The notes: generated by a model from the sequence alone, not told the origin. A DNA stretch of 64,000 nt from Vicinamibacterales bacterium (GCA_963665465.1 OY762226.1:5387986-5451985), one strand, 5' to 3'. Counted from the stretch's first letter, positions 781-17,865 are shown. A program made the numbers and translations.

Positions 781-946
781 TTGGGGGGTCGGCGAGGTCG
801 CCGACTCGGCCATTGGGTCCGGAACTCGTTGGCGGCGGTCCCGAGGGAACGGGAATACAGTGGCGAATCACGAGCGCGTCGTCGCTGACGAGGACCTCCT
901 TGACGAGGAGCCGCACGATCCGTTGCCGCTCCACGATGTCGAGCGT
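746..946 (-). pseudogene. 3' fragment (last ~66 codons) of the copy-A serine recombinase gene
   Basis: TLDIVERQRIVRLLVKEVLVSDDALVIRHCIPVPSGPPPTSSGPNGRVGDLADPPSYLLRSRG is identical to the C-terminus of the intact copy at 25645..27318. Confidence 0.85.
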
Positions 947-982
947 TGGAGTTGCCCCGACTATGCGGAACTCCACATAGTC
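947..982. repeat. Left arm of split 48-bp IR-pair palindrome (includes a 24-bp direct repeat at 959..982)
   Basis: TGGAGTTGCCCCGACTATGCGGAACTCCACATAGTC. GACTATGCGGAACTCCACATAGTC recurs at 15792..15815. A CGT at 944..946 is repeated at 15828..15830. Confidence 0.8.
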
Positions 983-1069
983 GGGGCTATGCAGAGTTCC
1001 GGACTATGCGGAGTTCGCCCGGCGGCTTGCGTGAACGCGGGCGATTACATGGAGCGGTACTCCGCATAG

Positions 1070-2071
1070 TCAGAGGGCTTCCAGGAAGTCGAGGAGCCGA
1101 TCGGTGGCTGTGAACCGGAGTGGCTGAGGTGCGGGATCGTCGACGCACCGGAGTGCGGCCTCCTTCATGGCGAGGTCGGCTTCGACGTACTGATGGGTGG
1201 TGGCCGTGTCCTCGTGGCCGAGCCAGAGAGCAATGACGGTGATGTCGACTCCCGACTGGAGCAGATGCATCGCGGTCGTGTGGCGTAGCGTGTGAGGCGA
1301 GATCCGTCGGGTCGCAAGTGAGGGCTGGCTTTGCGAGGCCCTTCGGCAGGCGACGTGCAGTTGATGCTCGACCCCGGAGCGCGACAGGGGCTTGCCGGCG
1401 CGATTGGGAAACACGGGAGCACCGGGGCTTCTATCGATTCGAGGGAGCCACGCCCGGAGCTGCGCTGCGGTGCTCTTCCAGAGCGGGACGACACGCTCCT
1501 TGCGTCCCTTGCCGTGCAGGAGCAGGGACGACGCGCGATCGAGAAGCACGTCGGCGACGAGGAGTCGGATCATCTCGGAGACGCGGGCGCCGGTGTTGTA
1601 GAGCACGGCGAAGAGGACGGCGTCGCGCTGTCCGCTCCAGGTGGTTCGGTCGGGAGCGTCGATGATCGCGGTGATCTCGTCGCGAGACAGGTAGCCGAGG
1701 ACGGGCCGGTCGAAGCGCTTGACGGGAATCGCGAGAACGTGTTGCGCGATGGGCAGCAGGGTTGGCTCGCGCAGCGAGGCGTAGCGCATGAAGGACCGGA
1801 TGGCGGTGAGACGGAGGTTGCGCGAGCGGGGGGAATTGCCGCGCTCGGTCTCGAGATGGTCGAGGAAGTCGAGGACCATGGGCGCATCGAGATCCGAGAC
1901 GGTCAGTGCCGACGGGGTCCGTCCGATGCGCTGTGCGGCATACCCGAGGAACAACGTGAAGGTGTCGCGGTAGCTGGCGATCGTGTGGGCGCTGGCGCCG
2001 CGTTGGGCTACGAGGCGCCGATGAAAGAAGTCCTGCAGGAGTGCGGGAAACGCGCGCTCGACCGACGTCAT
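1070..2071 (-). CDS. ritC: Tyrosine recombinase, third gene of RIT trio
   Basis: 333 aa. It has the SAM-like N-terminal domain, ARVSEM (Arg), HTLRHTTAMHLL (HxxR) and LGHEDTATTHQY (His/Tyr). Its start overlaps the upstream stop by 4 bp. Confidence 0.8.
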   Translation of the reverse strand: MTSVERAFPALLQDFFHRRLVAQRGASAHTIASYRDTFTLFLGYAAQRIGRTPSALTVSDLDAPMVLDFLDHLETERGNSPRSRNLRLTAIRSFMRYASLREPTLLPIAQHVLAIPVKRFDRPVLGYLSRDEITAIIDAPDRTTWSGQRDAVLFAVLYNTGARVSEMIRLLVADVLLDRASSLLLHGKGRKERVVPLWKSTAAQLRAWLPRIDRSPGAPVFPNRAGKPLSRSGVEHQLHVACRRASQSQPSLATRRISPHTLRHTTAMHLLQSGVDITVIALWLGHEDTATTHQYVEADLAMKEAALRCVDDPAPQPLRFTATDRLLDFLEAL

Positions 2072-3021
2072 GACGAGCGCTCCGACGCTCGGAGCGCAAA
2101 GCGTTCGAAGCGCTGCGCGGTGTTGACGAGCAACTCAGGGACAGCGGTGCAGTACCAGTAGGTGTCGGTGACCTTGGCGTGGCCGAGATAGGTCGACAGG
2201 GCCAGGATCTTGTGCTCGACATCGGCGCCGTCTTGGTACCAGCGCAGCAGCCGTCGCGTGACGAAGGTGTGTCTCAGGTCGTGAATGCGCGGAGCGCGCG
2301 TGCGCCCGTGTCCGGTCCAGCCCAGACGCTGCTTGAGCCGGCTGAAGGCCTTCTCTACGGCGTCGCGCGTGAGTCGAGGCGAATGCTCGGTGCGGAAGAA
2401 GTGCTCCGACCGGGATGCAGCACGACACGCGTCGCGGCGATCGGCGTAGCGGATCAGTGCTCGGGTCGTGGTCGGATGGAGCGGTACGAGTCGTGATTTC
2501 CGGAACTTCGTCTCGCGGATGCTCAGGATGCCGTTGACGAGGTCGACGTCGTCGGTCGTCAGGCGGCAGGCTTCGGAGAGGCGCAGGCCGGTCGAGACCA
2601 GCAGGGCGAAGTAGGCGACATAAGTAGCGGGTCGCAACCCCTGTCGGGGCAGCAAGCGACTCGCCTCCTGCAGGAGCGCAGCCACCTCGGACTCGGTGTA
2701 GATGTGTGGCGGTGGGCGGCGCGAGATGCGTCCGAGCAGGCCGACCGGTGGAACTTCGGTGGCCGGGTCGAAGAGCGCACGGTGTCGCGCGAGTTGTCGC
2801 ACCACCGCCAGCCGGCGTACGGCCTGCTCCGGATTGCTCGATTGTGAGGCCTGCGCCCACTGGACCATCAACTCGATCGTCAGGGGGCCGCTGTGTCCGA
2901 TCCGGTCTGCATGGCTGGCGAAGTCGCGCAGCAGCCATTCCGGCGTTTCGAGGCTGAAGCCGAGCCCGCGGCGTGCGATCAGGTAATCGTCGACCAGGCG
3001 GTGGAAGCTGGGAGGCGTCAT
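2068..3021 (-). CDS. ritB: Tyrosine recombinase, second gene of RIT trio
   Basis: 317 aa with GLRLSEACRL, HDLRHTFVT and LGHAKVTDTYWY. It has 4-bp overlaps with both neighbours. Confidence 0.8.
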   Translation of the reverse strand: MTPPSFHRLVDDYLIARRGLGFSLETPEWLLRDFASHADRIGHSGPLTIELMVQWAQASQSSNPEQAVRRLAVVRQLARHRALFDPATEVPPVGLLGRISRRPPPHIYTESEVAALLQEASRLLPRQGLRPATYVAYFALLVSTGLRLSEACRLTTDDVDLVNGILSIRETKFRKSRLVPLHPTTTRALIRYADRRDACRAASRSEHFFRTEHSPRLTRDAVEKAFSRLKQRLGWTGHGRTRAPRIHDLRHTFVTRRLLRWYQDGADVEHKILALSTYLGHAKVTDTYWYCTAVPELLVNTAQRFERFALRASERSS

Positions 3022-3941
3022 CGGAGCACCTCCGGCCAGGGAAGCGCGACCTCACGTAGTCTCGGCAGATCGAGCTTGGCGTAGATCGTCGTGGTATCGA
3101 GGCTGCGATGACCGAGCACGTCAGCGACCTCTTTGAGGCTGGCTCCTTGCTGCACCATGCGGCTGGCCACGGTGTGCCGGAAGACGTAGGCGCCGGCGAG
3201 CGGCGCGTCGACCGCCGACCGCCGCAACGCGCGCGCCACGACACCGGAGACGGCAGTGCTTGAAATCGGCTTGCCGCAGCGAACTCCCAGGCGCTGCACG
3301 AACACCCGCCGCTCGACAGTGGCTGGACGCTCGCCGTTCAGATAGTCGACCAACGCCTGGCCCACGGCGCGAGGCAGCGGCAGCATGGCGCTACGACGGT
3401 TCTTCCGGATGCGCACCTCGATGGTGCCGCCGCGCCAGTCGATGTCGTCCAGGCGCAGGTCGGCCACCTCGCCGGGCCGCAGCCCCAAGGTCGACAGGCA
3501 CTGGACAATCGCATGGTCCCGTTGTCTGCACGGGGTCGGGGTATCGAACGATCCCAGCACCTGCTGGACCTGCTGCTCGGTCAGCGAACGAGGCAGCGTC
3601 GCAAGCCGCCAGTGAGCAACCGTCGGTAGGGCAGTCTCGAGCTCGTTGCCGCAGAAGCCCTCGAAACGCAGGAACCGGAAGAACGACCGCAGCGTCGACC
3701 GCACGGTCCGCATCGAGCCCGGAGAGAACCGTCCTCGTAGCGACGTGATGAACGTCACCACATCGGCCGGCGCAAGGCGAGCGGGGTCGACCGGGTCCGC
3801 GCCAAGGGCGGCCCGGACGAGCATCCGGACGAGGCGGGCGCGGCCACGCAAAGTCTGAGGACGCAGACCGCGCGTACGTCGTTGGTGCTGGGTGTACGCC
3901 TCGATCAGATCGTCGAGGGTCCACGAGCTGGGAACGGTCAT
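3018..3941 (-). CDS. ritA: Tyrosine recombinase, first gene of RIT trio
   Basis: 307 aa with GLRPGEVADL, YVFRHTVASRM and LGHRSLDTTTIYAKL. Confidence 0.8.
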   Translation of the reverse strand: MTVPSSWTLDDLIEAYTQHQRRTRGLRPQTLRGRARLVRMLVRAALGADPVDPARLAPADVVTFITSLRGRFSPGSMRTVRSTLRSFFRFLRFEGFCGNELETALPTVAHWRLATLPRSLTEQQVQQVLGSFDTPTPCRQRDHAIVQCLSTLGLRPGEVADLRLDDIDWRGGTIEVRIRKNRRSAMLPLPRAVGQALVDYLNGERPATVERRVFVQRLGVRCGKPISSTAVSGVVARALRRSAVDAPLAGAYVFRHTVASRMVQQGASLKEVADVLGHRSLDTTTIYAKLDLPRLREVALPWPEVLR

Positions 3942-4138
3942 GGAATGCTCCTTTCCGGCCCATCAGGCCGGAGAGAGCATCCCGACTATGCGGAGTCTCG
4001 GGAACCGAGCAACTGCCGCAAATCCTTGGTTCTACGGGTACTTGAGCACGCGGAACCCGGAGTTGCTCCGCATAGTCCCGAACTCTGCATAGCCCCGATT
4101 TCGTGGACACCTAACCTGTTGGTGAGGAGGAGTCCACG

Positions 4139-4447
4139 ATGCCGAAGTCGAGACCGCCGTACCCGGCGGCATTCCGGCAGCAGATGGTCGAGCTGGTTCG
4201 GTCCGGACGCACACCGGGCGAACTGGCTCGGGAGTTCGAGCCGTCGGCCGAGGCGATACGGAACTGGGTTGCGCAGGCTGACCGCGACGCGGGAGAGCGC
4301 GCCGACGGCCTGAACACCGAGGAGCGTGAAGAGATTCGCCGGCTGCGCCGTGAGGTGCGTCGGCTGCGCGAAGAACGGGAGATATTGGCAAAAGCAACTG
4401 CCTGGTTCGCACGGGAGACCGGACCCGGGAGGACTACCGGTTCATGA
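4139..4447 (+). CDS. IS3-family transposase OrfA (HTH / leucine-zipper protein)
   Basis: 102 aa. YPAAFRQQMVELVRSGRTPGELAREFEPSAEAIRNWV plus the EEIRRLRREVRRLREEREILAKA coiled coil are typical of IS3 OrfA. Confidence 0.85.
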   Translation: MPKSRPPYPAAFRQQMVELVRSGRTPGELAREFEPSAEAIRNWVAQADRDAGERADGLNTEEREEIRRLRREVRRLREEREILAKATAWFARETGPGRTTGS

Positions 4448-4902
4448 GTGCGAATCAGGCTCGGTTCCGCGTCGCCACGATGGCCCGCGTGCTCGGTGTC
4501 TCCCCGAGCGGGTACTACGCGTGGCGTCGACGCCCCTGTTCGGCTCGCGCCCGGGCCGATGCCGAGTTGACCACCCGCGTGCGGGAGATTCACGCTCGCA
4601 GCCGGGGCACGTACGGCGCGCCGCGGATTCACGCCGACCTGGCCGACGACGGCGTGTCGGTCGGCCGCAAGCGGGTCGCGCGGGTGATGCGCGCCGCGGG
4701 CATCGCCGGCGTGAGCCGGCGCCGCGGCCCCCGCACGACGCGCCGGGCGGTACGGGCCCGGCCGGCGCCGGATCGCGTCGAGCGCCGCTTCGAAGCCGAC
4801 GAGCCGAACCGCCTATGGGCAGCCGACATCACCTACGTGCCGACCTTGGCGGGCTTCCTTTACCTGGCCATCGTCCTCGACGTCTTCAGCCGGCGGGTCG
4901 TG
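4444..4902 (+). pseudogene. IS3-family transposase OrfB, 5' part (first 153 codons)
   Basis: ...RIHADLADDGVSVGRKRVARVMR...PNRLWAADITYVPTLAGFLYLAIVLDVFSRRVV, after which the similarity stops. The frame resumes at 12144. Confidence 0.85.
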
Positions 4903-4928
4903 GATCCATCGTCATACTGCCCCCGGAC

Positions 4929-7139
4929 TTATGAGGAGTGTCCAAACAGCGTGGCTTGGTCGTCGATCACCTTGATTCGCAGGCCTTTTCTCTTCCCGTG
5001 GTGGACATGCACGGCGTCGAGTTCGCCGCGCTTGACACGCTGCAACACCGTCTGGCGCGACACGCCGAGGAGTCGAGTCGCGTCCTGCATCGGCACGTAT
5101 CCCGCCGGCGTCTGTTCGACGAAGCGGGCGAGCAGCTCCGGGGTGATGCGGATTCGCCACGGCGCGCCGGGGGTGAGTTGTTCGCCCGCGATGAATCCAT
5201 CGTTGATCCAGCGGTGCAGCGTAGACGGCGCCATGTCCAGGCGCTTGGCCGCTTCCTGGATGCTGACCACTTCACCGTCGGTCGAGCGCGTCGCCGGGTC
5301 GAAGCGCCCGAGATTCCAGTTGCGGCGCAGGTTCCCGACATGCATGGCGGTGAAGGGGTGGCCGTAGGCAGTCTTCTTGCCTTGGCGGCTCAGGATACCG
5401 GCGATCACGGCATCGGGATAGTGCTGGGCCAGGCGGCGCACAAGTTCGAGGGTGTCCTCGTCGGTTCGGATCGGCGGCTGGCGCGTCTGGGGGCGATCGA
5501 TGTCGAGTTCGGTCAGCATACCCCCGCGCCAGCGCAGCGTCAGGTGGGCGGTCTGCCCGCCGCGCGGCGCGGCGACGATGACTTCGTCGAGCAATGTGCG
5601 CAGCAACTCCTTCTTGTCCCGCGCCGTGGTGGTGGGCGCCTCCCAGACCCGCGGCAGGTCCATGCCAAGTGCGAGCACGGCCTTGCGCTCGTCGGTCGTC
5701 AGTTCGCGCGGTCGGCGCCGCTCGCGGCGTTCGAGTTCGGACCGCGCTTGTTCGAGTTCGCTCAGGCGCTGTTCCCATTCCGTCTCGAGGCCGCGGGCGA
5801 CGAGGCGATTCTCGGGCTCGACGGCATGGTACCGGCGTTCGGCGCGCTCGGCTTCATAGCGCGCCCGTTCGAGGGCCAGACGCCACTGTTCGAGCGCGCC
5901 GTCGTGATCGGCTTCGATCCGTTTGGCGGCGCGCAACGCGGCCTCGAGACCGGCCGGCTGCGCCGCGTCGAGCACGGCCTCGGACACCGCCCGGTCGATC
6001 TGTACGCCGCCGATGTACAGGCAGTACACGCCGCTTGCCTGGACGATGTCCTGACCCGAACAGTGATAGCCCGGCGAGGCGTTTCGTCCCTGGTAGTGGA
6101 CATACAGCCGCCGCCCGCAGTGGCCGCACGTGGCGATGCCTTGCAGCAGCGCGCTTCCTTCTCTGACCGCGCCGCTCCCCGCCGCATGCGGTCGCGGCCG
6201 CGTGTTGCTGCCGATGCGGGCGAGGTTATCCTCGTAGGTCGGCCAGTCGATATAGCCCGGGTGGTGGTCGGGGATCAGCACCGGCCACTCCGAGCGCGGT
6301 ACTCGACGCACACGCTGTCGCACCACACCGTTTTCGTCGACGACGCGTTCCTGCCGCGATTTGCCGTACGTGTAGGCGCCGGCATAGGCCGGATTGGTGA
6401 GTACCTGATGAATCGCATGATACGACGGAGGAACCCAGCGGATGGCGTCGCCGTGGTTCAAGCGCAGCGGGAAGGTGAGCTTCTCGGAGACGAACCACAA
6501 CCAGACGCGGCGCACCGACCCGAATTCGGCGAACCGCTCGAAAATCGCGCGAACAGCCCCGGTGACCGCTTCGTCGGGATGCAGCCGGATCTCGCCGTCG
6601 CGCTCGCCCCAGACGAGCCCGACCGGCAGACCGCAACGCAGCTCTCCGCGGGCCGCCTTGTTGCGGATCCCACCGTCGAGGCGCGCATGCAGGACATGCA
6701 GTTCGGCCTCTGACATTGTCCCCTTCAGCCCGAGGATAAGCCTGTCGTTGAAGATGTTCGGATCGTACACCCCGTCGGCATCGCCAATCAGAGTGTCGGT
6801 GATGCCGCACAGGTCGAGCAGCCGGTACCAGTCGGCGTTGTTGCGGGCCAGCCGCGAGACCTCCAGGCCGAGGAGAATGCCGACGTGTCCGAGGGCGACC
6901 TGCGCGGTCATGCGGGCGAAGCCGCCACGCCCCTGCGTGGTCGCGCCGGACAACCCCAGGTCCTCGTCGAGCACCGTGATCTGATCGGCGCGCCACCCGA
7001 ACTGGCGCGCCCGTTCGGCCAAGTCATATTGCCGTCGCGTCGATTCGCGATTCTGCTCGACCTGGGCAACAGTGGACTGTCGCACGTACACGACGGCGGC
7101 GCGGCGCAGGTGGGTGGGCTGGACTTTCGTCTCACTCAT
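4929..7139 (-). CDS. Large serine recombinase (736 aa) with two C-terminal HTH modules
   Basis: The start is MSETKV (ATG at 7139). It has a resolvase-type N-terminus (AAVVYVRQSTVAQ), a recombinase domain, a zinc ribbon (CGHCGRRLYVHYQG..YHC) and a coiled coil. The C-terminal modules are IQEAAKRLDMAPSTLHRWINDG and MQDATRLLGVSRQTVLQRVKRG. Confidence 0.85.
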   Translation of the reverse strand: MSETKVQPTHLRRAAVVYVRQSTVAQVEQNRESTRRQYDLAERARQFGWRADQITVLDEDLGLSGATTQGRGGFARMTAQVALGHVGILLGLEVSRLARNNADWYRLLDLCGITDTLIGDADGVYDPNIFNDRLILGLKGTMSEAELHVLHARLDGGIRNKAARGELRCGLPVGLVWGERDGEIRLHPDEAVTGAVRAIFERFAEFGSVRRVWLWFVSEKLTFPLRLNHGDAIRWVPPSYHAIHQVLTNPAYAGAYTYGKSRQERVVDENGVVRQRVRRVPRSEWPVLIPDHHPGYIDWPTYEDNLARIGSNTRPRPHAAGSGAVREGSALLQGIATCGHCGRRLYVHYQGRNASPGYHCSGQDIVQASGVYCLYIGGVQIDRAVSEAVLDAAQPAGLEAALRAAKRIEADHDGALEQWRLALERARYEAERAERRYHAVEPENRLVARGLETEWEQRLSELEQARSELERRERRRPRELTTDERKAVLALGMDLPRVWEAPTTTARDKKELLRTLLDEVIVAAPRGGQTAHLTLRWRGGMLTELDIDRPQTRQPPIRTDEDTLELVRRLAQHYPDAVIAGILSRQGKKTAYGHPFTAMHVGNLRRNWNLGRFDPATRSTDGEVVSIQEAAKRLDMAPSTLHRWINDGFIAGEQLTPGAPWRIRITPELLARFVEQTPAGYVPMQDATRLLGVSRQTVLQRVKRGELDAVHVHHGKRKGLRIKVIDDQATLFGHSS

Positions 7140-7381
7140 CCTCGCCCTCCTTCTCCGGTTCGGGTCGCGCCGCTTGCACGATGAGTCTCTCCAGCACGCC
7201 GAGCACCGCGACCTCGGTGGACGGGTCAAATCCGGCCATTTGTGGACACCGCAAATCCGGCCATTTCCGGCATCCCGAGACGGCACGTGAGTTCTACTTC
7301 ATGGGTTCGCGTATGCGCAAGGATCTGAGTCTGGTGAAGCCGGGGCCGCCAGGCCCATAGCGGCTCTCTGAGCGGAGGGAC

Positions 7382-7450
7382 GGGCGGCGTGTCACCCGGC
7401 AGGGCCGGAGCGCACGCGGAGGACGCGCGCAGCGCGTTGACACGCCGGCC
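7382..7450. repeat. Hairpin immediately downstream of istB
   Basis: GGGCGGCGTGTCA (7382..7394) pairs with TGACACGCCGGCC (7438..7450), 12/13. The arm sequence is the same as in the hairpin at 335..416. Confidence 0.55.
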
Positions 7451-7459
7451 GTTCCGTAG

Positions 7460-8233
7460 CTACCCGTGTCGGAGCGCATCGATCGACCTCCCACCCGCGG
7501 CTGCCTGGACCTTGGTGCGCCAGCTGCGCGGCCCGCACTTGAGCACGTGCGCGTGATGGAGCAGGCGGTCGAGCAGCGCGGTGACGGCGGCGGTGTCTCC
7601 GAGCAGCTTCCCCCAGTCGTCGACCGGCCGGTTCGAGGTGAGCATCGTGGAGGCGCGTTCGTAGCGCCGCATGACCAGCTCGAGCAGGTCCTCGGCGGCA
7701 GTGTGGGGCAGCTTGCGCATGCCGAGGTCGTCGATGATGAGCAGGGGCACGCGGGTGAGCTCGACCAGGTAGGCCTTGCGGGTGTCGGCGAGCGTGGCCT
7801 CGGCGAGCTCCTCGAGGAAGGCGTGCGCCTCGCGGTAGATGACGCGGTAGCCCTGCTCGATGGCGGCGCGGCCGATGGCCTGGGCAAGATGGCTCTTGCC
7901 CGTACCGGGCGGCCCGATCAGCAGGACGTCCTCGCGCTGGGCGATGAAACGCGCGGTGGCGAGCTCGAAGACGAGGGCGCGGTTGATCTTCTTGTTGAAG
8001 GCGAAGTCGAAGCTGTCGAGCGCGCGGTCCGGGTCGCGGAATCGGGCCTGTTTGTGGCGCCGGGCGAGCAGCCGGTCCTGGCGCCGCTGCAGTTCGTCGT
8101 TGACGAGGGCGGCGACGAGGTCGATCGGGGCCATCTGCTCGACCTGGGCCTGCTGCAGGCGCGTGTCGAGGACATCGGCGATCCCGGAGAGGCGGAGCTT
8201 GCGCAGGGCCTGGTCGAGTTCGACGAGATTCAT
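7460..8233 (-). CDS. istB: IS21-family IstB helper ATPase
   Basis: 257 aa with Walker A GPPGTGKSH and Walker B LLIIDDLG. It overlaps the istA stop by 4 bp. Confidence 0.9.
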   Translation of the reverse strand: MNLVELDQALRKLRLSGIADVLDTRLQQAQVEQMAPIDLVAALVNDELQRRQDRLLARRHKQARFRDPDRALDSFDFAFNKKINRALVFELATARFIAQREDVLLIGPPGTGKSHLAQAIGRAAIEQGYRVIYREAHAFLEELAEATLADTRKAYLVELTRVPLLIIDDLGMRKLPHTAAEDLLELVMRRYERASTMLTSNRPVDDWGKLLGDTAAVTALLDRLLHHAHVLKCGPRSWRTKVQAAAGGRSIDALRHG

Positions 8234-9816
8234 GACGGGTCTCCTGTTCTGCGGTCGATCAGATCGCGGTAGACGGTCAGTTGCCGGATGAGCGGGTCGA
8301 CCTGGCGCAGCGAGAGGGGCGGCGCTGGCCGGCGGTCGAGGTAGCGCTTCAAGAAGCGGTAGGTGGGCATGCCGAGTTCGAGCGCGGCGGCGGCGGCCTG
8401 TTCGACGACGACGGGGCCGTGCTTCTTGGCGAGGGCGAGGACGCCGAGGATGCGGCGGACGCCGGCAGCCCCGTCGTGACGGTGGATGTGGTCGCAGATG
8501 GTGGCGGTCCCCGGGCCGGCCCGCTTGGCGGCCGCGAGCAGGGCGAGGGTCTTCGGCGGTGTGCGGGCGGGCCGGTCGTCGTCGGCGATGCGATGCCAGC
8601 CCCGGGGCGCGCGCAGGTGCTCGCGGAGGAGCTGGCCGGTGCTCGGGTCGAGCAGGCGGACGTGCAGGTCATTCCACTGGACGTGGACGCGGCGGCCGAT
8701 CCAGCCCGGCGGCGCGCTGTAGTAGGCGGAGGCGACCTCGACGCAGCCGTCGAGATGCACGGTGCGTTGGCCGTACTCGTAGTAGCGGAAGGGCTCGAGC
8801 GGCAACGGGCCGAGCGCCGGACGTTCCTCGGCGAACATGGCGGCGACCTGGCGTTTGGTCGTGCCGTGGATGCGGGTGTCGGCCCAGCGCCGGTCCCAGC
8901 GGTCCAGGTATGCCTGGCCGTCGTCGAGGTGCTCGAAGCGGAGGCCGCGCAGCGGCGTCTTCTGGGTGTGGCCGACGCTGGCTTCGACCTTGCCTTTCCG
9001 ATCGGGATCGCGGACGCGGCACGGCAGGGCGACGACACCGTAGTGGGCGAGCACGTCGCGGTAGAGCGGATTGAGCGTCGGGTCGTAGATGTCCGGGTGG
9101 AGGACGCCCTCCTTGAGATTGTCGAGCACGACGACGCGTACGGTGCCGCCCAGCCGGCGAAACGCCCGCTCGTGCAGCTCGGCCCAGACCTGGGCGCTGG
9201 AGCGGTGAACCAGCAGCCGGACGGCCTTGCGCGAGTAGCCCAGGGTGAGGACGAAGAGCCGTGTCCGCCGGTACTTGCCGGTGTCAGGGTCACGGACCAT
9301 CGGTCCCTCCCCGTAGTCGACCTGTGCTTCTTCGCCCGGGGCGGTGGCGATCACCGCTCGAGCCTCGACGGCGGGCTGCTGCCGGACGGTCGCGACGAAG
9401 CGCCGCACGCTCGCATAGCCCGCCGGGAAGCCGTGGTCGTCGACCAGGTCCTGCCAGATGGCCATGGCGTTGCGCCCGCGGCCGAGCGCGTCGACGACCA
9501 GCTCGCGGTAGGGCTCGCACGCGCTCGCCCGCGGCGCACGAGTGGGACGGTCTCCGGCCACGGCAGTGGCCGTTTCGGTGCCGGTCCCGGCCGCGGGCGC
9601 CGCCGAGTCGGTGGACACCTGCGCGGAAATGGCCGGATTTGACGGTCGGGTGCGAGGACGGCCGCGGCCCTGCACCACCAGCCCGGCGGCCTTGAGGTAG
9701 CCGCTGGCCGTCTCGCGCCGCACCCCAGTCGCCCGTTCGATACGACGAAGCGACCAGCCGAGGCGCCCCAGCGCCAGGACCTGCTGTCGTTTCTCTTCAG
9801 CCAAGACGTTGCTCAT
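8230..9816 (-). CDS. istA: IS21-family IstA transposase
   Basis: The start is MSNVLAEEKRQQVLALGRLGWSLRRIERATGV (HTH). The DDE core has QVDYGEG..., and the C-terminal region is typical of IstA. 528 aa. Confidence 0.9.
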   Translation of the reverse strand: MSNVLAEEKRQQVLALGRLGWSLRRIERATGVRRETASGYLKAAGLVVQGRGRPRTRPSNPAISAQVSTDSAAPAAGTGTETATAVAGDRPTRAPRASACEPYRELVVDALGRGRNAMAIWQDLVDDHGFPAGYASVRRFVATVRQQPAVEARAVIATAPGEEAQVDYGEGPMVRDPDTGKYRRTRLFVLTLGYSRKAVRLLVHRSSAQVWAELHERAFRRLGGTVRVVVLDNLKEGVLHPDIYDPTLNPLYRDVLAHYGVVALPCRVRDPDRKGKVEASVGHTQKTPLRGLRFEHLDDGQAYLDRWDRRWADTRIHGTTKRQVAAMFAEERPALGPLPLEPFRYYEYGQRTVHLDGCVEVASAYYSAPPGWIGRRVHVQWNDLHVRLLDPSTGQLLREHLRAPRGWHRIADDDRPARTPPKTLALLAAAKRAGPGTATICDHIHRHDGAAGVRRILGVLALAKKHGPVVVEQAAAAALELGMPTYRFLKRYLDRRPAPPLSLRQVDPLIRQLTVYRDLIDRRTGDPS

Positions 9817-10506
9817 GCCGGGCAGGAACGGTCTGTTCCCGACCGGCGTCAACGTCTCGGGGCGCTATCGGAAATGGCCTATGTGGACGCCCGTGCTGCT
9901 GTCAAGGTTCCGAGCCGCTTCCGGATTCTCGCGTGGGTCCCGGAGTTGGCCGAGTAGACGTCCGAACGCTCCGCCACCTCTCCGGGATGGACGGAGCCGC
10001 GTCGCGTAGCCGCCCCCGTTACGGCGCCTCCCTCAGGGTCGGCTTGGTCATCCGGCCAGTGTTTTCGGTGGCCGGACGAATCCGTCCGGCGACAACCAGC
10101 TCTGAGCCGGCGCGAGCGACGAGTCACCTGAAAGGCCGAAGCGCAAGCGGAGGAGACGCGAAGCGGCTTGACTCGACGGGAGCAGAGGCTACCTCTCCGC
10201 ATCACCACCTACCCACATGAATTCGTGAAGACCCGGTTCCGACTCGGCGAGCGTAGCGAACAGGTTGCGGCTCTATGTTCGGCCTATGAATCCAGGTCTC
10301 GTGCCTGGTGGCCCCGATGGAATCAGCCGATCCGCGCCTCATTCGGTTTGCGGGCTTGGTGCCCAGCCATTTCCTCAGGCTTGACGGATCGCGGTTTGGC
10401 CTGTTTGCCATCACACCTCGTCGTTGCTTACGCAACCTTCAACGAGCTGGTCGGTTTACTTCGCAGGTCGGACGAATGTCATCGACTCGAGAGTCGCCGG
10501 CGGTGT

Positions 10507-11550
10507 TCACTCCCTGCCTTGCGCCAGGCAGATTGACGGGCGAAAGTTCGGTTCGTACGCCCGGTCATGGGCCAGCAGCGCCCAGATCGTACGCGCCGTC
10601 TTGTTCGCCAGTGCGACGACGACGACGTTCGATGGGCGGCGTCTGACGAGTCCGAGCTGCCACGCTGAGGGCAGCTTCGCGTGCACGAGCGCGGAACGTG
10701 CGCCGTGGATCAGCAGCGTTCGAAGATAGGTGTCCCCACGCTTCGAGATTCCGAGCATGCGTACTCGCCCACCTGTGCCGGTGTGTCGAGGAACGAGACC
10801 GAGCCAGGCCGCGAATTCCCGTCCGGACCGGAACGCTGTCGGATCGCCCATCGTAGCGACCGCGGCGGTCGCGCTCAGCACTCCGACACCCGGGATCGCT
10901 GCGATCCGCCGGCTGGCCAGAGTCTGGCGGTGCCAGACCGTGAGACGACGCTCGATCCTGTCGATCTCGCCGTCGAGGTCGGTGACCCGAACCCACTGCT
11001 CGCGCAGCGTATCGACGACCAGTCCCGGCAACCGCTGCGAAACGCGCTCGAGGGCGGAGGCTATATCCCGCCGCATTCCGGCTCGGCCCTGAGGCATCAC
11101 TTCGCCGTGTTCGGCCAGCAGACCGCGCAGGCAGTTAATCTGGGCGGTACGGAACTTCACCAACTGCTGGCGCATGCGATGCAGGGCCAGGATCCCCTGC
11201 TGCTCCTCGCTCTTCACGGCAACCGTCTTGACCCCGGGTTGCTGAACCGCCGTCCAGATCGCCCGCGCGTCGTGCGCGTCATCCTTGTTGCCCGTCACGA
11301 ATGGCCGGACCATCTTCGCCGGTAGCAGGCGGACCTCGTGGCCCAACGCCAGAAGTCGGCGCGCCCAATGCTGCGCGCCGCCGCAGGCCTCCATGCCGAT
11401 GAGGCACGGCGCGCGATTGGCGAAGTGCTCGAGAAACTTCACCCGTGTCAGGCGCAGCCCGATGAGCTCGCCTGTCTCCGTCTCGACCCAGTGCACCTGG
11501 AACACCCGCTTCGCAATGTCCACGCCGACGACGGTTCTGCTACTCTGCAT
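10507..11550 (-). CDS. IS110-family (IS1111-group-like) transposase
   Basis: 347 aa from MQSSRTVVGVDIAK. The N-terminal DEDD-type motifs are VGVDIAK and GMEACGG. The C-terminal region reads IPGVGVLSATAAVATMGDPTAFRSGREFAAWLGLVPRHTGTGGRVRMLGISKRGDTYLR. The layout resembles IS4321/IS5075 (recalled from memory). Confidence 0.85.
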   Translation of the reverse strand: MQSSRTVVGVDIAKRVFQVHWVETETGELIGLRLTRVKFLEHFANRAPCLIGMEACGGAQHWARRLLALGHEVRLLPAKMVRPFVTGNKDDAHDARAIWTAVQQPGVKTVAVKSEEQQGILALHRMRQQLVKFRTAQINCLRGLLAEHGEVMPQGRAGMRRDIASALERVSQRLPGLVVDTLREQWVRVTDLDGEIDRIERRLTVWHRQTLASRRIAAIPGVGVLSATAAVATMGDPTAFRSGREFAAWLGLVPRHTGTGGRVRMLGISKRGDTYLRTLLIHGARSALVHAKLPSAWQLGLVRRRPSNVVVVALANKTARTIWALLAHDRAYEPNFRPSICLAQGRE

Positions 11551-11697
11551 GCTGGACCCTCCGGTTGCCCGGGAAGACCTTGCGTCTTCCCCCCTTGGCA
11601 CTCTGATGCCGTCGGCCCGTGGGGGTCCACTTCTTCAACCCCACGGCCCGACATCAAGAACGAAGGGCGTCCATTCCATTCGGTTTTCAACTGTCCA

Positions 11698-12130
11698 CTA
11701 TTGGCCGGTTTTGACCGTCGACCGAGGGCGATGCGCTGCTCGTCTTCCAGCACCGCCCATACGTTCGGGTCGAGGCGCGGGTCCGTCAAGGGGCGCAGGT
11801 CCTTCAGAAAGCCGAGGTTCAGTTGCATGCTCCTCCTCCGCTTCAAGGCGATGGAGAAGAGCGTCGACAATCGTCCGCATCCGCAACAAGTCGGCGATGC
11901 CGGCCAGAGCGTGTGCGGCGCGGGCGACACGGTCGTCCGCGCCGTCTGATGCGGCGTCGGTCCAGGCGACCGGCACCAACCGCCGGCCTCCATCTGGAAA
12001 CAGCAACAGGAGCTGGTGCCCACCTTGCCGCTGCATCCGCCTCAAGACAGCGAGACGTTGGCCTTGGAATGGATGCGCCTCACGAGTGATGGTCGCGAAG
12101 TCGGGAAGGTCGTCGAGATGGGTAGTGTGT
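11698..12130 (-). CDS. Small HPF...WTD-motif protein (DUF5372-like, from memory); start codon unresolved
   Basis: The frame reads ...TITREAHPFQGQRLAVLRRMQRQGGHQLLLLFPDGGRRLVPVAWTDAASDG...IADLLRMRTIVDALL. No canonical start lies upstream of the listed TTG. The 3' tail probably reads into the IS1111-type end. Confidence 0.4.
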
Positions 12131-12143
12131 CGGGTGTTCCGTC

Positions 12144-12647
12144 GGTTGGGCGATGGCCGCGCACCTGCGCACGGAGCTGGTCATCGACGCGTTGGAGATG
12201 GCCATCGCGCAGCGCCGACCCGAAGCGGTCGTGCATCACTCCGACCAGGGCTGCCAGTACACGTCGCTGGCCTTCGGCGCTCGCTGCCACGAATGGGGCG
12301 TGGCGCTGTCGATGGGCTCGGTGGGCGATTGTTTCGATAATGCGGTCGCCGAGAGCTTCTTCGCAACGCTCGAGTGCGAGCTGCTCGACCGCACGAGGTT
12401 GTCGACTCACGCCGCAGCGCGGGTAGCCGTGTTCGAGTTCATCGAAGGGTGGTATAACACGCGGCGGCGTCATTCCGCGCTGGGCTATCGATCGCCGCTT
12501 GAGTTCGAACGTCTCCACCCAGGCCCTGTGGACGGCGCCCGGCCTGTGGACGCCCTGCGGGCGCCCACAAGTCCGTTGGATCCCGCGCTGCGCGCGGGCT
12601 CCACACCGCCCACAGGGAACGATGTCGATGTACAGACCATGACGTGA
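12144..12647 (+). pseudogene. IS3-family transposase OrfB, 3' part (DDE catalytic region)
   Basis: GWAMAAHLRTELVIDALEMAI...HHSDQGCQYTS...SMGSVGDCFDNAVAESFFATLECE...YNTRRRHSALGYRSPLEFE continues the frame broken at 4902. Confidence 0.85.
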
Positions 12648-12764
12648 ACCCGGAAGCGTTAACCTGTCCACGAGATCGGGGCTATGCAGAGTTCCGGACT
12701 ATGCGGAGTTCGCCCGGCGGCTTGCGTGAACGCGGGCGATTACATGGAGCGGTACTCCGCATAG

Positions 12765-13766
12765 TCAGAGGGCTTCCAGGAAGTCGAGGAGCCGATCGGT
12801 GGCTGTGAACCGGAGTGGCTGAGGTGCGGGATCGTCGACGCACCGGAGTGCGGCCTCCTTCATGGCGAGGTCGGCTTCGACGTACTGATGGGTGGTGGCC
12901 GTGTCCTCGTGGCCGAGCCAGAGAGCAATGACGGTGATGTCGACTCCCGACTGGAGCAGATGCATCGCGGTCGTGTGGCGTAGCGTGTGAGGCGAGATCC
13001 GTCGGGTCGCAAGTGAGGGCTGGCTTTGCGAGGCCCTTCGGCAGGCGACGTGCAGTTGATGCTCGACCCCGGAGCGCGACAGGGGCTTGCCGGCGCGATT
13101 GGGAAACACGGGAGCACCGGGGCTTCTATCGATTCGAGGGAGCCACGCCCGGAGCTGCGCTGCGGTGCTCTTCCAGAGCGGGACGACACGCTCCTTGCGT
13201 CCCTTGCCGTGCAGGAGCAGGGACGACGCGCGATCGAGAAGCACGTCGGCGACGAGGAGTCGGATCATCTCGGAGACGCGGGCGCCGGTGTTGTAGAGCA
13301 CGGCGAAGAGGACGGCGTCGCGCTGTCCGCTCCAGGTGGTTCGGTCGGGAGCGTCGATGATCGCGGTGATCTCGTCGCGAGACAGGTAGCCGAGGACGGG
13401 CCGGTCGAAGCGCTTGACGGGAATCGCGAGAACGTGTTGCGCGATGGGCAGCAGGGTTGGCTCGCGCAGCGAGGCGTAGCGCATGAAGGACCGGATGGCG
13501 GTGAGACGGAGGTTGCGCGAGCGGGGGGAATTGCCGCGCTCGGTCTCGAGATGGTCGAGGAAGTCGAGGACCATGGGCGCATCGAGATCCGAGACGGTCA
13601 GTGCCGACGGGGTCCGTCCGATGCGCTGTGCGGCATACCCGAGGAACAACGTGAAGGTGTCGCGGTAGCTGGCGATCGTGTGGGCGCTGGCGCCGCGTTG
13701 GGCTACGAGGCGCCGATGAAAGAAGTCCTGCAGGAGTGCGGGAAACGCGCGCTCGACCGACGTCAT
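12765..13766 (-). CDS. ritC: Tyrosine recombinase, third gene of RIT trio (copy 2)
   Basis: The translation is identical to 1070..2071. Confidence 0.8.
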   Translation of the reverse strand: MTSVERAFPALLQDFFHRRLVAQRGASAHTIASYRDTFTLFLGYAAQRIGRTPSALTVSDLDAPMVLDFLDHLETERGNSPRSRNLRLTAIRSFMRYASLREPTLLPIAQHVLAIPVKRFDRPVLGYLSRDEITAIIDAPDRTTWSGQRDAVLFAVLYNTGARVSEMIRLLVADVLLDRASSLLLHGKGRKERVVPLWKSTAAQLRAWLPRIDRSPGAPVFPNRAGKPLSRSGVEHQLHVACRRASQSQPSLATRRISPHTLRHTTAMHLLQSGVDITVIALWLGHEDTATTHQYVEADLAMKEAALRCVDDPAPQPLRFTATDRLLDFLEAL

Positions 13767-14716
13767 GACGAGCGCTCCGACGCTCGGAGCGCAAAGCGTT
13801 CGAAGCGCTGCGCGGTGTTGACGAGCAACTCAGGGACAGCGGTGCAGTACCAGTAGGTGTCGGTGACCTTGGCGTGGCCGAGATAGGTCGACAGGGCCAG
13901 GATCTTGTGCTCGACATCGGCGCCGTCTTGGTACCAGCGCAGCAGCCGTCGCGTGACGAAGGTGTGTCTCAGGTCGTGAATGCGCGGAGCGCGCGTGCGC
14001 CCGTGTCCGGTCCAGCCCAGACGCTGCTTGAGCCGGCTGAAGGCCTTCTCTACGGCGTCGCGCGTGAGTCGAGGCGAATGCTCGGTGCGGAAGAAGTGCT
14101 CCGACCGGGATGCAGCACGACACGCGTCGCGGCGATCGGCGTAGCGGATCAGTGCTCGGGTCGTGGTCGGATGGAGCGGTACGAGTCGTGATTTCCGGAA
14201 CTTCGTCTCGCGGATGCTCAGGATGCCGTTGACGAGGTCGACGTCGTCGGTCGTCAGGCGGCAGGCTTCGGAGAGGCGCAGGCCGGTCGAGACCAGCAGG
14301 GCGAAGTAGGCGACATAAGTAGCGGGTCGCAACCCCTGTCGGGGCAGCAAGCGACTCGCCTCCTGCAGGAGCGCAGCCACCTCGGACTCGGTGTAGATGT
14401 GTGGCGGTGGGCGGCGCGAGATGCGTCCGAGCAGGCCGACCGGTGGAACTTCGGTGGCCGGGTCGAAGAGCGCACGGTGTCGCGCGAGTTGTCGCACCAC
14501 CGCCAGCCGGCGTACGGCCTGCTCCGGATTGCTCGATTGTGAGGCCTGCGCCCACTGGACCATCAACTCGATCGTCAGGGGGCCGCTGTGTCCGATCCGG
14601 TCTGCATGGCTGGCGAAGTCGCGCAGCAGCCATTCCGGCGTTTCGAGGCTGAAGCCGAGCCCGCGGCGTGCGATCAGGTAATCGTCGACCAGGCGGTGGA
14701 AGCTGGGAGGCGTCAT
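13763..14716 (-). CDS. ritB: Tyrosine recombinase, second gene of RIT trio (copy 2)
   Basis: The translation is identical to 2068..3021. Confidence 0.8.
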   Translation of the reverse strand: MTPPSFHRLVDDYLIARRGLGFSLETPEWLLRDFASHADRIGHSGPLTIELMVQWAQASQSSNPEQAVRRLAVVRQLARHRALFDPATEVPPVGLLGRISRRPPPHIYTESEVAALLQEASRLLPRQGLRPATYVAYFALLVSTGLRLSEACRLTTDDVDLVNGILSIRETKFRKSRLVPLHPTTTRALIRYADRRDACRAASRSEHFFRTEHSPRLTRDAVEKAFSRLKQRLGWTGHGRTRAPRIHDLRHTFVTRRLLRWYQDGADVEHKILALSTYLGHAKVTDTYWYCTAVPELLVNTAQRFERFALRASERSS

Positions 14717-15636
14717 CGGAGCACCTCCGGCCAGGGAAGCGCGACCTCACGTAGTCTCGGCAGATCGAGCTTGGCGTAGATCGTCGTGGTATCGAGGCTG
14801 CGATGACCGAGCACGTCAGCGACCTCTTTGAGGCTGGCTCCTTGCTGCACCATGCGGCTGGCCACGGTGTGCCGGAAGACGTAGGCGCCGGCGAGCGGCG
14901 CGTCGACCGCCGACCGCCGCAACGCGCGCGCCACGACACCGGAGACGGCAGTGCTTGAAATCGGCTTGCCGCAGCGAACTCCCAGGCGCTGCACGAACAC
15001 CCGCCGCTCGACAGTGGCTGGACGCTCGCCGTTCAGATAGTCGACCAACGCCTGGCCCACGGCGCGAGGCAGCGGCAGCATGGCGCTACGACGGTTCTTC
15101 CGGATGCGCACCTCGATGGTGCCGCCGCGCCAGTCGATGTCGTCCAGGCGCAGGTCGGCCACCTCGCCGGGCCGCAGCCCCAAGGTCGACAGGCACTGGA
15201 CAATCGCATGGTCCCGTTGTCTGCACGGGGTCGGGGTATCGAACGATCCCAGCACCTGCTGGACCTGCTGCTCGGTCAGCGAACGAGGCAGCGTCGCAAG
15301 CCGCCAGTGAGCAACCGTCGGTAGGGCAGTCTCGAGCTCGTTGCCGCAGAAGCCCTCGAAACGCAGGAACCGGAAGAACGACCGCAGCGTCGACCGCACG
15401 GTCCGCATCGAGCCCGGAGAGAACCGTCCTCGTAGCGACGTGATGAACGTCACCACATCGGCCGGCGCAAGGCGAGCGGGGTCGACCGGGTCCGCGCCAA
15501 GGGCGGCCCGGACGAGCATCCGGACGAGGCGGGCGCGGCCACGCAAAGTCTGAGGACGCAGACCGCGCGTACGTCGTTGGTGCTGGGTGTACGCCTCGAT
15601 CAGATCGTCGAGGGTCCACGAGCTGGGAACGGTCAT
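14713..15636 (-). CDS. ritA: Tyrosine recombinase, first gene of RIT trio (copy 2)
   Basis: The translation is identical to 3018..3941. Confidence 0.8.
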   Translation of the reverse strand: MTVPSSWTLDDLIEAYTQHQRRTRGLRPQTLRGRARLVRMLVRAALGADPVDPARLAPADVVTFITSLRGRFSPGSMRTVRSTLRSFFRFLRFEGFCGNELETALPTVAHWRLATLPRSLTEQQVQQVLGSFDTPTPCRQRDHAIVQCLSTLGLRPGEVADLRLDDIDWRGGTIEVRIRKNRRSAMLPLPRAVGQALVDYLNGERPATVERRVFVQRLGVRCGKPISSTAVSGVVARALRRSAVDAPLAGAYVFRHTVASRMVQQGASLKEVADVLGHRSLDTTTIYAKLDLPRLREVALPWPEVLR

Positions 15637-15791
15637 GGAATGCTCCTTTCCGGCCCATCAGGCCGGAGAGAGCATCCCGACTATGCGGAGTCTCGGGAAC
15701 CGAGCAACTGCCGCAAATCCTTGGTTCTACGGGTACTTGAGCACGCGGAACCCGGAGTTGCTCCGCATAGTCCCGAACTCTGCATAGCCCC

Positions 15792-15827
15792 GACTATGCG
15801 GAACTCCACATAGTCGGGGCAACCTCA
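15792..15827. repeat. Right arm of split 48-bp IR-pair palindrome
   Basis: GACTATGCGGAACTCCACATAGTCGGGGCAACCTCA, followed by the duplicated CGT (15828..15830). Confidence 0.8.
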
Positions 15828-17782: not shown

Positions 17783-17865
17783 GAGGCATAAACATATTAC
17801 CTCTTGAGACACAAATCAAGTACCGGCCGGTCTCGCCAGCCGCCGATCACGCGGTTGAACTGAAA

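Follow-up and report, generated by a model that had tools for sequence, protein, structure and literature searches.

Two RIT insertions into one IS3-family element as a probable source of a repeated 32-bp palindrome in a Vicinamibacterales genome

The presence of an identical 32-bp near-palindrome on both sides of a pair of RIT elements raises the question of whether the whole structure entered its site in a single site-specific event or in several. The structure lies in a 64,000-nucleotide stretch of DNA from a Vicinamibacterales bacterium (GCA_963665465.1 OY762226.1:5387986-5451985), referred to here as the window, from the first letter of which all positions are counted. A preliminary description read the two palindromes as the attL and attR of an att-type integration, with a direct repeat of 24-32 bp per insertion.

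The repeated palindrome and its surroundings

The palindrome pair itself was borne out by the analysis. The 64-kb window contains exactly two copies of CCCCGACTATGCGGAACTCCACATAGTCGGGG, at 955-986 and 15788-15819 on the plus strand, the left copy running into RIT-1 and the right copy out of RIT-2 as originally described, and no match to the 32-mer was found in 100 dinucleotide-preserving shuffles. Identity between the copies reaches exactly 34 bp (954-987 versus 15787-15820). Four positions at the palindrome centre are asymmetric (CGGAACTCCA versus the reverse complement TGGAGTTCCG) and have the same polarity in both copies; thus the repeat is direct rather than inverted. Half palindromes are found in the window at 732-756, 17891-17914 and 25631-25655. 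The features of the region are as follows.

732..782, plus strand: left end of a serine-recombinase element; half of a solo palindrome (TGGAGTTG CCCCGA CTATGTGGA), GT, then the element's own inverted repeat (TACCCCGTGAACGCAAAAGGTAACTT)
944..946, no strand: left copy of the CGT target duplication, in the serine-recombinase gene (paralogue 25837-25850 uninterrupted)
947..954, plus strand: IS3-family left inverted repeat, outer 8 bp (TGGAGTTG)
955..986, plus strand: palindrome P1 of RIT-1, made up of 6-mer CCCCGA (955-960; also nt 9-14 of the IS inverted repeat), L10 CTATGCGGAA (961-970), R10 CTCCACATAG (971-980) and 6-mer TCGGGG (981-986)
987..4092, minus strand: RIT-1 core, 3106 bp, ends CTATGCAGAG...CTCTGCATAG; genes ritC 1070-2071, ritB 2068-3021 and ritA 3018-3941, minus strand
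4093..4098, plus strand: 6-mer CCCCGA at the palindrome-free end of RIT-1, direct repeat of 955-960
4099..12675, plus strand: IS3-family IS body, separating the two RIT cores; it holds the left inverted-repeat remainder TTTCGTGGACACC..., followed by orfA (4139-4447), the orfB 5' part (4444 onward), a nested insertion of ~7.2 kb, the orfB 3' part and, at its end, the right inverted-repeat remainder ...GTCCACGAGA
4929-7286, minus strand: second large serine recombinase, in the nested insertion
7460-9852, minus strand: IS21 istB/istA, in the nested insertion
10507-11601, minus strand: IS110, in the nested insertion
12676..12681, plus strand: 6-mer TCGGGG at the palindrome-free end of RIT-2; nt 14-9 of the IS right inverted repeat and direct repeat of 15814-15819
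12682..15787, minus strand: RIT-2 core, identical to the RIT-1 core; genes ritC 12765-13766, ritB 13763-14716 and ritA 14713-15636, minus strand
15788..15819, plus strand: palindrome P2 of RIT-2, same sequence and polarity as P1
15820..15827, plus strand: IS3-family right inverted repeat, outer 8 bp (CAACCTCA)
15828..15830, no strand: right copy of the CGT duplication
17864..17914, plus strand: right end of the serine-recombinase element; own inverted repeat, GT, then the other palindrome half (TCCGCATAG TCGGGG CAACCTCA)
25630..27644, minus strand: serine-recombinase element, second copy (98.6-99.8% identity to the first), gene uninterrupted

Both elements belong to the RIT group, of which they are a Vicinamibacterales-like acidobacterial member. 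Each carries the three adjacent overlapping tyrosine recombinase genes (ritA-ritB-ritC) by which RITs are recognized, as three minus-strand ORFs (3018-3941, 2068-3021 and 1070-2071) that overlap by 4 bp, in an arrangement repeated at 12765-15636; all three match Pfam Phage_integrase, with E-values of 1e-24 to 4e-34. Terminal inverted repeats are formed by arms at 972-1013/4066-4107 and 12676-12708/15761-15793, which are 90-97% complementary and contain repeated subterminal ACTATGCGGA motifs. RIT-1 and RIT-2 are direct repeats with 100% identity over 3118 bp (981-4098 versus 12676-15793), a length that spans the core and both bounding 6-mers, and the occurrence of two identical copies at different places is taken as a sign of mobility. 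In RITs the three proteins belong to separate RitA, RitB and RitC subfamilies, RitA having two core-binding domains and RitC an additional helix at its C-terminus. The putative RitC exhibits 54-57% identity to the third recombinase of the Cupriavidus, Paraburkholderia and Sphingobium trios, and relatives with 91-98% RitC identity are found at many sites across Vicinamibacterales genomes.

A single IS3-family insertion sequence makes up the whole segment from 947 to 15827; its ends are TG...CA, and it is flanked by a duplication of 3 bp, CGT. It possesses the HTH_Tnp_1 and HTH_21 domains and a truncated rve domain in an orfA/orfB arrangement, along with TGGAGTTG...CAACCTCA termini and inverted repeats. 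Intact copies of this IS in related genomes are contiguous (TGAGGTTG-CCCCGA-TCCCGTGGAC). More specifically, uninterrupted inverted repeats free of any RIT are found at loci L006 (position 8784), L010 (11485), L024 (4939) and L032 (8381), with the consensus TGRGGTTG-CCCCGA-TYCCGTGGAC; L006 and L010 also exhibit continuity of the IS and intact right inverted repeats (...GATCGGGGCAACCTCA). In the window, the remaining halves of these repeats instead adjoin the inner ends of both RIT cores. The gene in the second serine-recombinase copy is uninterrupted and therefore serves as the empty site for the IS insertion; at 25837-25850 it reads gtcgagCGTctcggcc, without a palindrome. Logan unitigs (k=31) of four runs confirm this empty site and contain further palindrome contexts; too short to bridge the 32-bp palindrome, they yielded no read of a circle junction or an excision. 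Because RIT-free contiguous IS3 inverted repeats exist, the TGGAGTTG...CAACCTCA sequences were rejected both as outer ends of the RITs and as a 48-bp miniature element. A DDE-type target duplication of the 32-mer was likewise rejected, as the 32-bp repeat is not target sequence and only CGT qualifies. The IS inverted repeat beside the 6-mer (GTCCACGAGA-TCGGGG) resembles the RIT's own CTCCACATAG-TCGGGG.

Palindromes and 6-mers in related elements

A palindrome of the form N6-YTATGN5|N5CATAR-N6' adjoins the RIT core in ~35 loci, the hosts of which range from Acidobacteriota to Pseudomonas and Cupriavidus. Most RITs have a single palindrome, which may stand to the left or the right of the core; palindromes at both ends are found at L009, L082, L074 and L056. 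Its arms match the 10-mers at the ends of the RIT and co-vary with them across phyla; in the window, L10 and R10 each agree with the core tips at 8 of 10 positions, whereas the match is perfect in most relatives. Most of the palindromes are perfect through their centre (GAGCTC, AAGCTT, CCGCGG). The 32-mer of the window was found at only two loci in a metagenome scan.

Among 26 related RITs with a single palindrome, the six bases at the opposite end match the outer 6-mer of the palindrome at 137 of 156 positions. The 6-mers themselves vary widely between close relatives. Where the two ends differ, it is almost always the palindrome-free one that bears the target-type 6-mer (L018, L031, L033, L062, L065, L067, L077); a simple heteroduplex model, which predicts a 50:50 split, does not fit this bias and was rejected. 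In proteobacterial relatives, full-length IS66-family transposase ORFs (524-551 aa) reappear once the core, 26 bp and one 6-mer are taken out; these ORFs read ...GRKNWLFAG... over the junction and align to positions 1-283 of 284 of Pfam DDE_Tnp_IS66. The 14-bp conserved flank of the proteobacterial palindromes (CAACTGGCTGTTCG) was considered as an IS tip and rejected; it represents the NWLFAG codons of IS66 transposase genes. The target side of the palindrome is constant (towards the IS tip, or downstream in IS66), and the core can lie in either orientation, as revealed by pairs with the same flanks and opposite cores (L007/L011, L035/L036, L064/L065).

Thus, the 6-mer matches and the restored ORFs place the repeat created by each event at 6 bp, with the 32-bp repeat resulting from two events, and the claim of 24-32 bp per insertion does not hold: the sequence actually shared is 6 bp, and each RIT owns one palindrome. 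An att core shared with the empty target is found for these 6 bp only, as CCCCGA/TCGGGG is present in the intact IS inverted repeats; the 24-32-bp palindrome is absent from the empty sites, and most related RITs are one-ended. The preliminary description had named unrelated flanks lacking a long repeat as evidence against its reading. This is partly what was found, since most related RITs have a palindrome at one end and unrelated flanks, yet those flanks still share the 6-mer.

The uninterrupted 48-bp site, for which a search elsewhere had been proposed, is present in other genomes (L002, L004 and L085). These solo palindromes with IS tips look like deletion relics, and they may serve as the attachment site of the serine-recombinase element. 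The large serine recombinase contains Resolvase, Recombinase and Zn_ribbon_recom domains. The first copy of its element has GT at both junctions; the left junction of the second has AC, and no right end was found for it. Relatives of this element at L087, L097 and L155 occupy the centres of RIT-type palindromes.

Origin of the direct repeat

Halves of the IS inverted repeats flank the RIT cores, which implies that the structure first arose through two insertions into one IS. The palindromes are probably the end palindromes of two identical RITs that inserted at the same six bases in the inverted ends of the IS. The IS3-family IS would first have entered the large serine recombinase gene, giving rise to the CGT duplication, and two copies of one RIT would later have integrated at CCCCGA, nt 9-14 of both inverted repeats; this order of events is one that we infer. 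An integrated RIT consists of the 3106-bp core (CTATGCAGAG...CTCTGCATAG) and 26 element-borne bases, with a 6-bp direct repeat framing the unit. These 26 bases comprise a 6-mer followed by an abutted copy of both end 10-mers, and together with the outer 6-mer make up the 32-bp palindrome. Because the IS inverted repeats are mirror images, the palindrome comes to lie on the IS-tip side twice, hence the 32-bp direct repeat around the apparent composite.

The 6-bp repeat is of the kind expected for a tyrosine-recombinase overlap. The Rit recombinases would exchange strands over this overlap between a site on a circular RIT (palindrome 10-mer, 6-mer, core 10-mer) and a target with the same or almost the same 6-mer. 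Both core ends would be joined through one palindrome, so that the circular RIT is predicted to carry the palindrome at its end joint. With two inverted core-type sites back to back, the core could enter or flip either way while the palindrome always remained on the same target side. To the observed anatomy, empty sites, 6-bp rule and fixed palindrome side we would add, by inference, the circle itself, the cleavage positions and a division of roles among the Rit proteins. Among the observations that count against this explanation, the three 6-mers of a RIT differ in concert from one lineage to another, mismatched target-type 6-mers favour the palindrome-free end, and the centre of the window palindrome is an imperfect GAACTC in place of the GAGCTC of most relatives.

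The att reading survives in part, in that the palindrome is a recombination-related RIT sequence, but one integration at a host site that left the two copies as attL and attR is not supported. On that reading, a composite circle with one palindrome would have integrated palindrome-by-palindrome into a pre-existing 48-bp site, in a single event. Solo sites of exactly that form and double-palindrome RITs both exist, and the two window palindromes are identical in sequence and polarity. However, the 8-bp flanks and CCCCGA are the inverted-repeat tips of an IS3 element, the body of which lies between the RIT cores with its repeat remainders against their inner ends; the solo 48-mer is itself derived from such an IS, and the empty site in the paralogue is palindrome-free. 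This alternative is thus unlikely, although the whole composite may have re-integrated at a solo palindrome. A cointegrate, or homologous recombination of a chromosomal RIT with an IS-carrying circle, was set aside as unnecessary, though still conceivable, once the halves of the IS inverted repeats were recognized.

Hairpin-forming ends have been suggested for the RITs of Sphingobium, and the palindromes could accordingly be hairpin ends of a linear or single-stranded intermediate, duplicated by hairpin processing or replication. Perfection through the centre, as in most of the palindromes, is unusual for tyrosine-recombinase core sites, and Nielsen et al. (2017) reported exonuclease-protected RIT DNA and no circle junctions (PMC5737581). 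Replication of a hairpin would nevertheless give the opposite of what is seen, as the end 10-mers of the palindrome face each other in the manner of a zero-length element; moreover, most RITs have a palindrome at one end only, and precise ORF restoration with a 6-bp repeat fits conservative exchange. We regard the hairpin reading as quite improbable. That a repetitive extragenic palindrome or terminator of the host flanks the elements by chance would account for a stem-loop-forming sequence with half copies at several window sites, but every copy in the window and the first 86 loci is attached to a RIT core, an IS3 tip or a serine-recombinase element, and across phyla the arms vary in step with the end 10-mers of the RIT, which they match. 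Along with the RIT-free IS inverted repeats and the 6-mer matches, this co-variation effectively refutes a host origin, the chance of which is very slight.

The explanation by two RIT insertions can be extended to a general picture, which we hold to be evenly balanced between true and false. RITs would be conservative tyrosine-recombinase transposons that carry two back-to-back core sites on their circle, use a target-tracking 6-bp overlap and are specialised parasites of other mobile elements, leaving relic palindromes at which a small serine-integrase element then attaches. Their targets would include nt 9-14 of IS3-family inverted repeats, IS66 transposase genes at the GRKNWLF codons and one further transposase gene. 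The window would then hold at least four nested layers: a palindrome entered by a serine-recombinase element, whose gene was entered by the IS3 element, which in turn took up RITs at its ends and further IS elements in its body.

Comparison with known systems

RITs were described in 2009, and the question of how they move has stood open ever since. The table of a 2023 review marks their choice of target, their empty site and their mode of movement as untested, and RIT transposition had not been reproduced by that time (PMC10214605). Comparative anatomy predicts the ends of the mobile unit, the 6-bp crossover region, the circle-junction sequence, natural empty and filled sites and preferred targets. 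It corrects a tempting misreading as well, since a long direct repeat around an apparent composite need not signify att duplication, and it reveals mobile elements that target the conserved sequences of other mobile elements.

Like the RITs already described (Van Houdt 2009/2012, PMC3414803; Nielsen 2017, PMC5737581), the elements have three tyrosine recombinase genes that overlap, inverted repeats at their termini and several identical copies. Direct repeats of 42 bp (perfect) and 51 bp (imperfect), with palindromes of 47 and 51 bp, were reported at both ends of two Sphingobium RITs (Nielsen 2017, PMC5737581). In contrast, the palindrome here is resolved into a 6-mer, two 10-mers and a 6-mer and is normally single, each insertion has a 6-bp repeat and empty sites, and the targets are inside other mobile elements. 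Some of these points may already stand in Ricker 2013.

The tyrosine-recombinase core sites of Xer/dif and Cre/loxP type, used also by integrating elements, likewise have inverted arms of ~10 bp around a 6-bp overlap that sets polarity, with conservative exchange of the kind proposed here. RITs differ in that two such sites stand back to back and form a palindrome, three recombinases are encoded, and the 6-mer varies between lineages while matching or nearly matching the target. Tn554, SE and GInt also combine several tyrosine recombinase genes with 6-bp junctions and site-specific insertion; however, Tn554 and SE bring a copy of a 6-bp flank along when they insert elsewhere and have no terminal inverted repeats, whereas RITs possess inverted repeats and a palindrome at the end, and their core can invert freely. 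The solo 48-bp palindrome (23 + 2 + 23) resembles the imperfect palindromes with a central dinucleotide that are used by large serine integrases (phiC31-like, TnpX/TndX-like), as does the 54-bp attP reconstructed for the neighbouring serine-recombinase element. This likeness belongs to that neighbouring element, the window copies of which differ in their central dinucleotide (GT versus AC), and not to the RIT.

The 32-bp repeat and its carrier insertion

Two copies of the 32-mer CCCCGACTATGCGGAACTCCACATAGTCGGGG are present, at 955-986 and at 15788-15819, each on the + strand, and the preliminary description was right to treat this repeat as real: the match is exact, no further copy with up to 3 mismatches is present in the window, and shuffled windows yielded no matches (0/100). 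Exact identity between the two copies covers 34 bp. The 32-mer is almost palindromic: only four positions, at its centre, are asymmetric. Their polarity does not differ between the copies, which makes the repeat direct. RIT-1 adjoins the left copy and RIT-2 the right one. These two recombinase-in-trio (RIT) elements form direct repeats, are identical across 3118 bp and each contain, on the - strand, three Phage_integrase genes that overlap.

The palindrome consists, in order, of the 6-mer CCCCGA, two 10-mers, L10 (CTATGCGGAA) and R10 (CTCCACATAG), and the complementary 6-mer TCGGGG (6-mer'). The RIT core itself ends in the 10-mers CTATGCAGAG...CTCTGCATAG, which agree with L10/R10 at 8/10 positions in the window and perfectly in most relatives, and subterminal ACTATGCGGA repeats are also present. 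Taken singly, each window RIT has one palindrome.

Features of the insertion and of the serine recombinase element that carries it
732-782 and 17864-17914: ends of serine element copy 1, each combining one half of a solo palindrome with a dinucleotide and the element's own 26-bp inverted repeat
955 and 4093: CCCCGA, the 6-bp direct repeat bounding RIT-1
RIT-1 (core 987-4092): 6-mer, L10, R10, 6-mer', core, 6-mer
7460-9852, - strand: IS21 (istA/istB), nested in IS3 orfB
10507-11601, - strand: IS110-family transposase, nested in IS3 orfB
12676 and 15814: TCGGGG, the 6-bp direct repeat bounding RIT-2
RIT-2 (core 12682-15787): 6-mer', core, 6-mer, L10, R10, 6-mer'

Self-comparison of the window identifies 731-946 and 15828-17632 as separated halves of a single sequence, which is continuous at 25630-27644 (98.6% and 99.8% identity). 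The sequence is that of a large serine recombinase gene, whose product has Resolvase, Recombinase and Zn_ribbon_recom domains; the gene comprises 15825-17819 and 780-946 in the interrupted copy and 25645-28053 in the intact one. Where the halves meet, the intact gene reads gtcgagCGTctcggcc and the interrupted one gtcgagCGT/TGGAGTTG...CAACCTCA/CGTctcggcc; thus, the segment 947-15827 was inserted, has TG...CA termini and is flanked by a 3-bp duplication. The stretch between the RITs contains an orfA of IS3 type (HTH_Tnp_1) and an orfB (HTH_21, rve) that is truncated; a second large serine recombinase, the IS21 and the IS110 are nested within this orfB. This second recombinase (4929-7286, - strand; 785 aa, C-terminal HTH_17) is unlike the first. 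In L006, one of the loci fetched from other genomes for comparison (L-numbers), orfB is uninterrupted between the equivalents of window positions ~4900 and ~12140. An inverted match (82% identity) pairs 305-448, upstream of the serine element, with 7343-7487, where the istB region of the IS21 ends, and may represent a fragment of an IS21 end.

The uninterrupted inverted repeat of the same IS reads TGAGGTTG-CCCCGA-TCCCGTGGACGGGTTAA... in L006 and L010 and TGGACTTG-ACCCGG-TTCCGTGGACAC... in L024. In the window it is split on the left as TGGAGTTG-CCCCGA-(RIT-1)-TTTCGTGGACACC and on the right as GTCCACGAGA-TCGGGG-(RIT-2)-CAACCTCA, which places both RITs at the 6-mer that occupies nucleotides 9-14 of each inverted repeat. 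At least 10 related RITs share this position next to IS3 inverted repeats (L005, L006, L010, L016, L017, L024, L032, L033 and the two window RITs). Beside the 6-mer, the inverted repeat (GTCCACGAGA-TCGGGG) resembles the RIT site (CTCCACATAG-TCGGGG), and because of this likeness the self-alignment runs 9 bp past the core with only 3 mismatches.

The repeat had been attributed to the att duplication of a single RIT integration, a reading that is contradicted by the empty site, the intact serine gene copy, in which no palindrome is present at the join. Instead, the 32-bp repeat is the product of two integrations, each with a 6-bp overlap, into both ends of one IS. The palindromes lie on the outer side at both ends because the two IS inverted repeats mirror each other, and it is this outer placement that creates an apparent 32-bp direct repeat. 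That the two RITs agree in palindrome polarity as well as in core orientation is consistent with one predicted circle having integrated twice, once via each of its two sites.

The window contains several other repeats. Many diverged tandem and dispersed repeats (~85-460 bp, 72-87% identity) occupy 22361-24448 within an ORF (22037-24676, 879 aa) that looks like a repetitive protein. A tandem duplication at 30745-31374 (97% identity, period ~309 bp) lies within a 1409-aa ORF (28698-32927, - strand), and diverged paralogous segments pair 41588-42627 with 43812-44836 (71% identity) and 20431-20726 with 28385-28680 (86% identity).

Palindrome, overlap and orientation among RIT relatives

Of 80 fetched loci with genes for relatives of the third recombinase, approximately 35 have a 32-bp palindrome, N6-YTATGN5/N5CATAR-N6', that immediately adjoins the RIT core; these loci range from Vicinamibacterales to Pseudomonas, Cupriavidus and Desulforhopalus and down to ~55% protein identity. 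The usual number is one palindrome per RIT, on either the ritA or the ritC side; two are found in L009, L082, L074 and L056. Close relatives vary greatly in their 6-mers and conserve the 10-mers, and the three 6-mers of any one element vary in concert. In 26 single-palindrome elements, including the two window RITs, the 6 bases flanking the palindrome-free end agree with the outer palindrome 6-mer at 137 of 156 positions, whereas the following 6 bases are unrelated.

Proteobacterial RITs, and some others, sit inside IS66-family transposase genes at the conserved GRKNWLFAG codons (GRKN(W/Y)LFAG in L048, L049, L058, L062, L067, L069, L076, L077 and L079); those of L064 and L065 lie near a DNN motif in such genes. 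Removal of the core, 26 bp and one 6-mer regains ORFs of 524-551 aa that match DDE_Tnp_IS66 over its full length together with the IS66 C-terminal domain, and the same removal in L019 regains a 699-aa ORF. By this restoration, what moves is the core together with 26 bp, and a further 6 bp are common to element and target. The L019 ORF contains ...RLKPGEKKHSKRMATVAAVY... and has no Pfam match; a stretch homologous to it, cgtctcaagccgggcgagaagaag, occurs at ~640-665 of the window, and a unitig joint (669 to 947) in three runs ties this gene (~640-680) to the IS tip.

The 6-mers of the IS66-inserted elements are synonymous-codon variants of the R-K codons (in L077, AAGGAA in the element versus CCGAAA in the target), which suggests that RITs hop among IS66 copies with overlap mismatches tolerated. 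Where the 6-mers mismatch, the palindrome itself remains perfect and the odd 6-mer lies at the palindrome-free flank, a placement that hints at biased or single-strand-exchange resolution.

If an insertion is written as X, 6-mer, core, palindrome, Y, the side of the palindrome is constant for a given target (the tip side in IS3 inverted repeats, the downstream side in IS66 genes), while the core is found in both orientations. Three comparisons have equal flanks and palindrome position with the core reversed (L007 versus L011/L014, L035 versus L036, L064 versus L065), and these indicate that the core either inverted in place or was inserted independently in each orientation. A canonical tyrosine-recombinase exchange whose 6-bp overlap is asymmetric would produce a fixed palindrome side with free core orientation, provided that the circle carries core end, 6-mer, L10, R10, 6-mer' and core end. 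Such a circle would comprise two inverted core-type sites with the palindrome in common, and its predicted junction is ...CTCTGCATAG-CCCCGA-CTATGCGGAA-CTCCACATAG-TCGGGG-CTATGCAGAG...; the circle, like the cleavage points and the roles of the Rit proteins, is an inference.

Solo palindromes and the serine recombinase element

The uninterrupted 48-bp site that the att-type reading called for is present in L002, L004 and L085, each consisting of the 8-nucleotide IS tip, the palindrome and the IS tip again, with nothing more; in L002 a CGG duplication flanks it on both sides. Such solo palindromes are best read as relics of an IS with RITs in both inverted repeats, as in the window. They could arise by recombination between both palindromes or through loss of the entire composite, excised at its 6-mer sites, and this part of the earlier idea is mechanistically plausible. 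The att-type reading holds insofar as the palindrome belongs to a RIT recombination site and the 48-bp site exists, but not in its particulars. Double-palindrome RIT forms have been reported in Sphingobium (PMC5737581), and these might result from a RIT integrating beside a solo-palindrome relic.

The serine element itself (2.3 kb) comprises one large serine recombinase gene and inverted repeats of ~26 bp, and its insertion point is exactly central in a solo palindrome of RIT type. Its closest relatives (L087, L097, L155) likewise occupy the exact centre of RIT-type palindromes with other 6-mers, and a public-run unitig contains another copy, lying in a palindrome whose 6-mer is CCAACG. The palindrome therefore appears to be used as an attachment site, as had been proposed, but by the serine recombinase and not by the RIT. 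More distant relatives (57-83% identity) use another conserved target, ...CGCATGTAGACGTTGCTGAACAGCGG... / ...CCCCGCAAGGGG.... The junction dinucleotide is AC at the left of copy 2 versus GT in copy 1; copy 2 diverges from copy 1 past 27644, and its right end was not found. Reconstruction gives, for attB, a 48-bp palindrome like those of L002/L004 and, for attP, a 54-bp imperfect palindrome, the usual form for large serine integrases.

Comparison with described RIT elements

Palindromic direct repeats at RIT ends have been noted once (PMC5737581), and the mechanism, target choice and empty sites of RITs were listed as untested in 2023 (PMC10214605). As far as the accessible literature shows, the single element-borne palindrome, the 6-bp overlap, the fixed palindrome side with free core orientation and the location of RIT targets within other mobile elements are undescribed. 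RIT elements are a known kind, of which the window locus is a new acidobacterial member.
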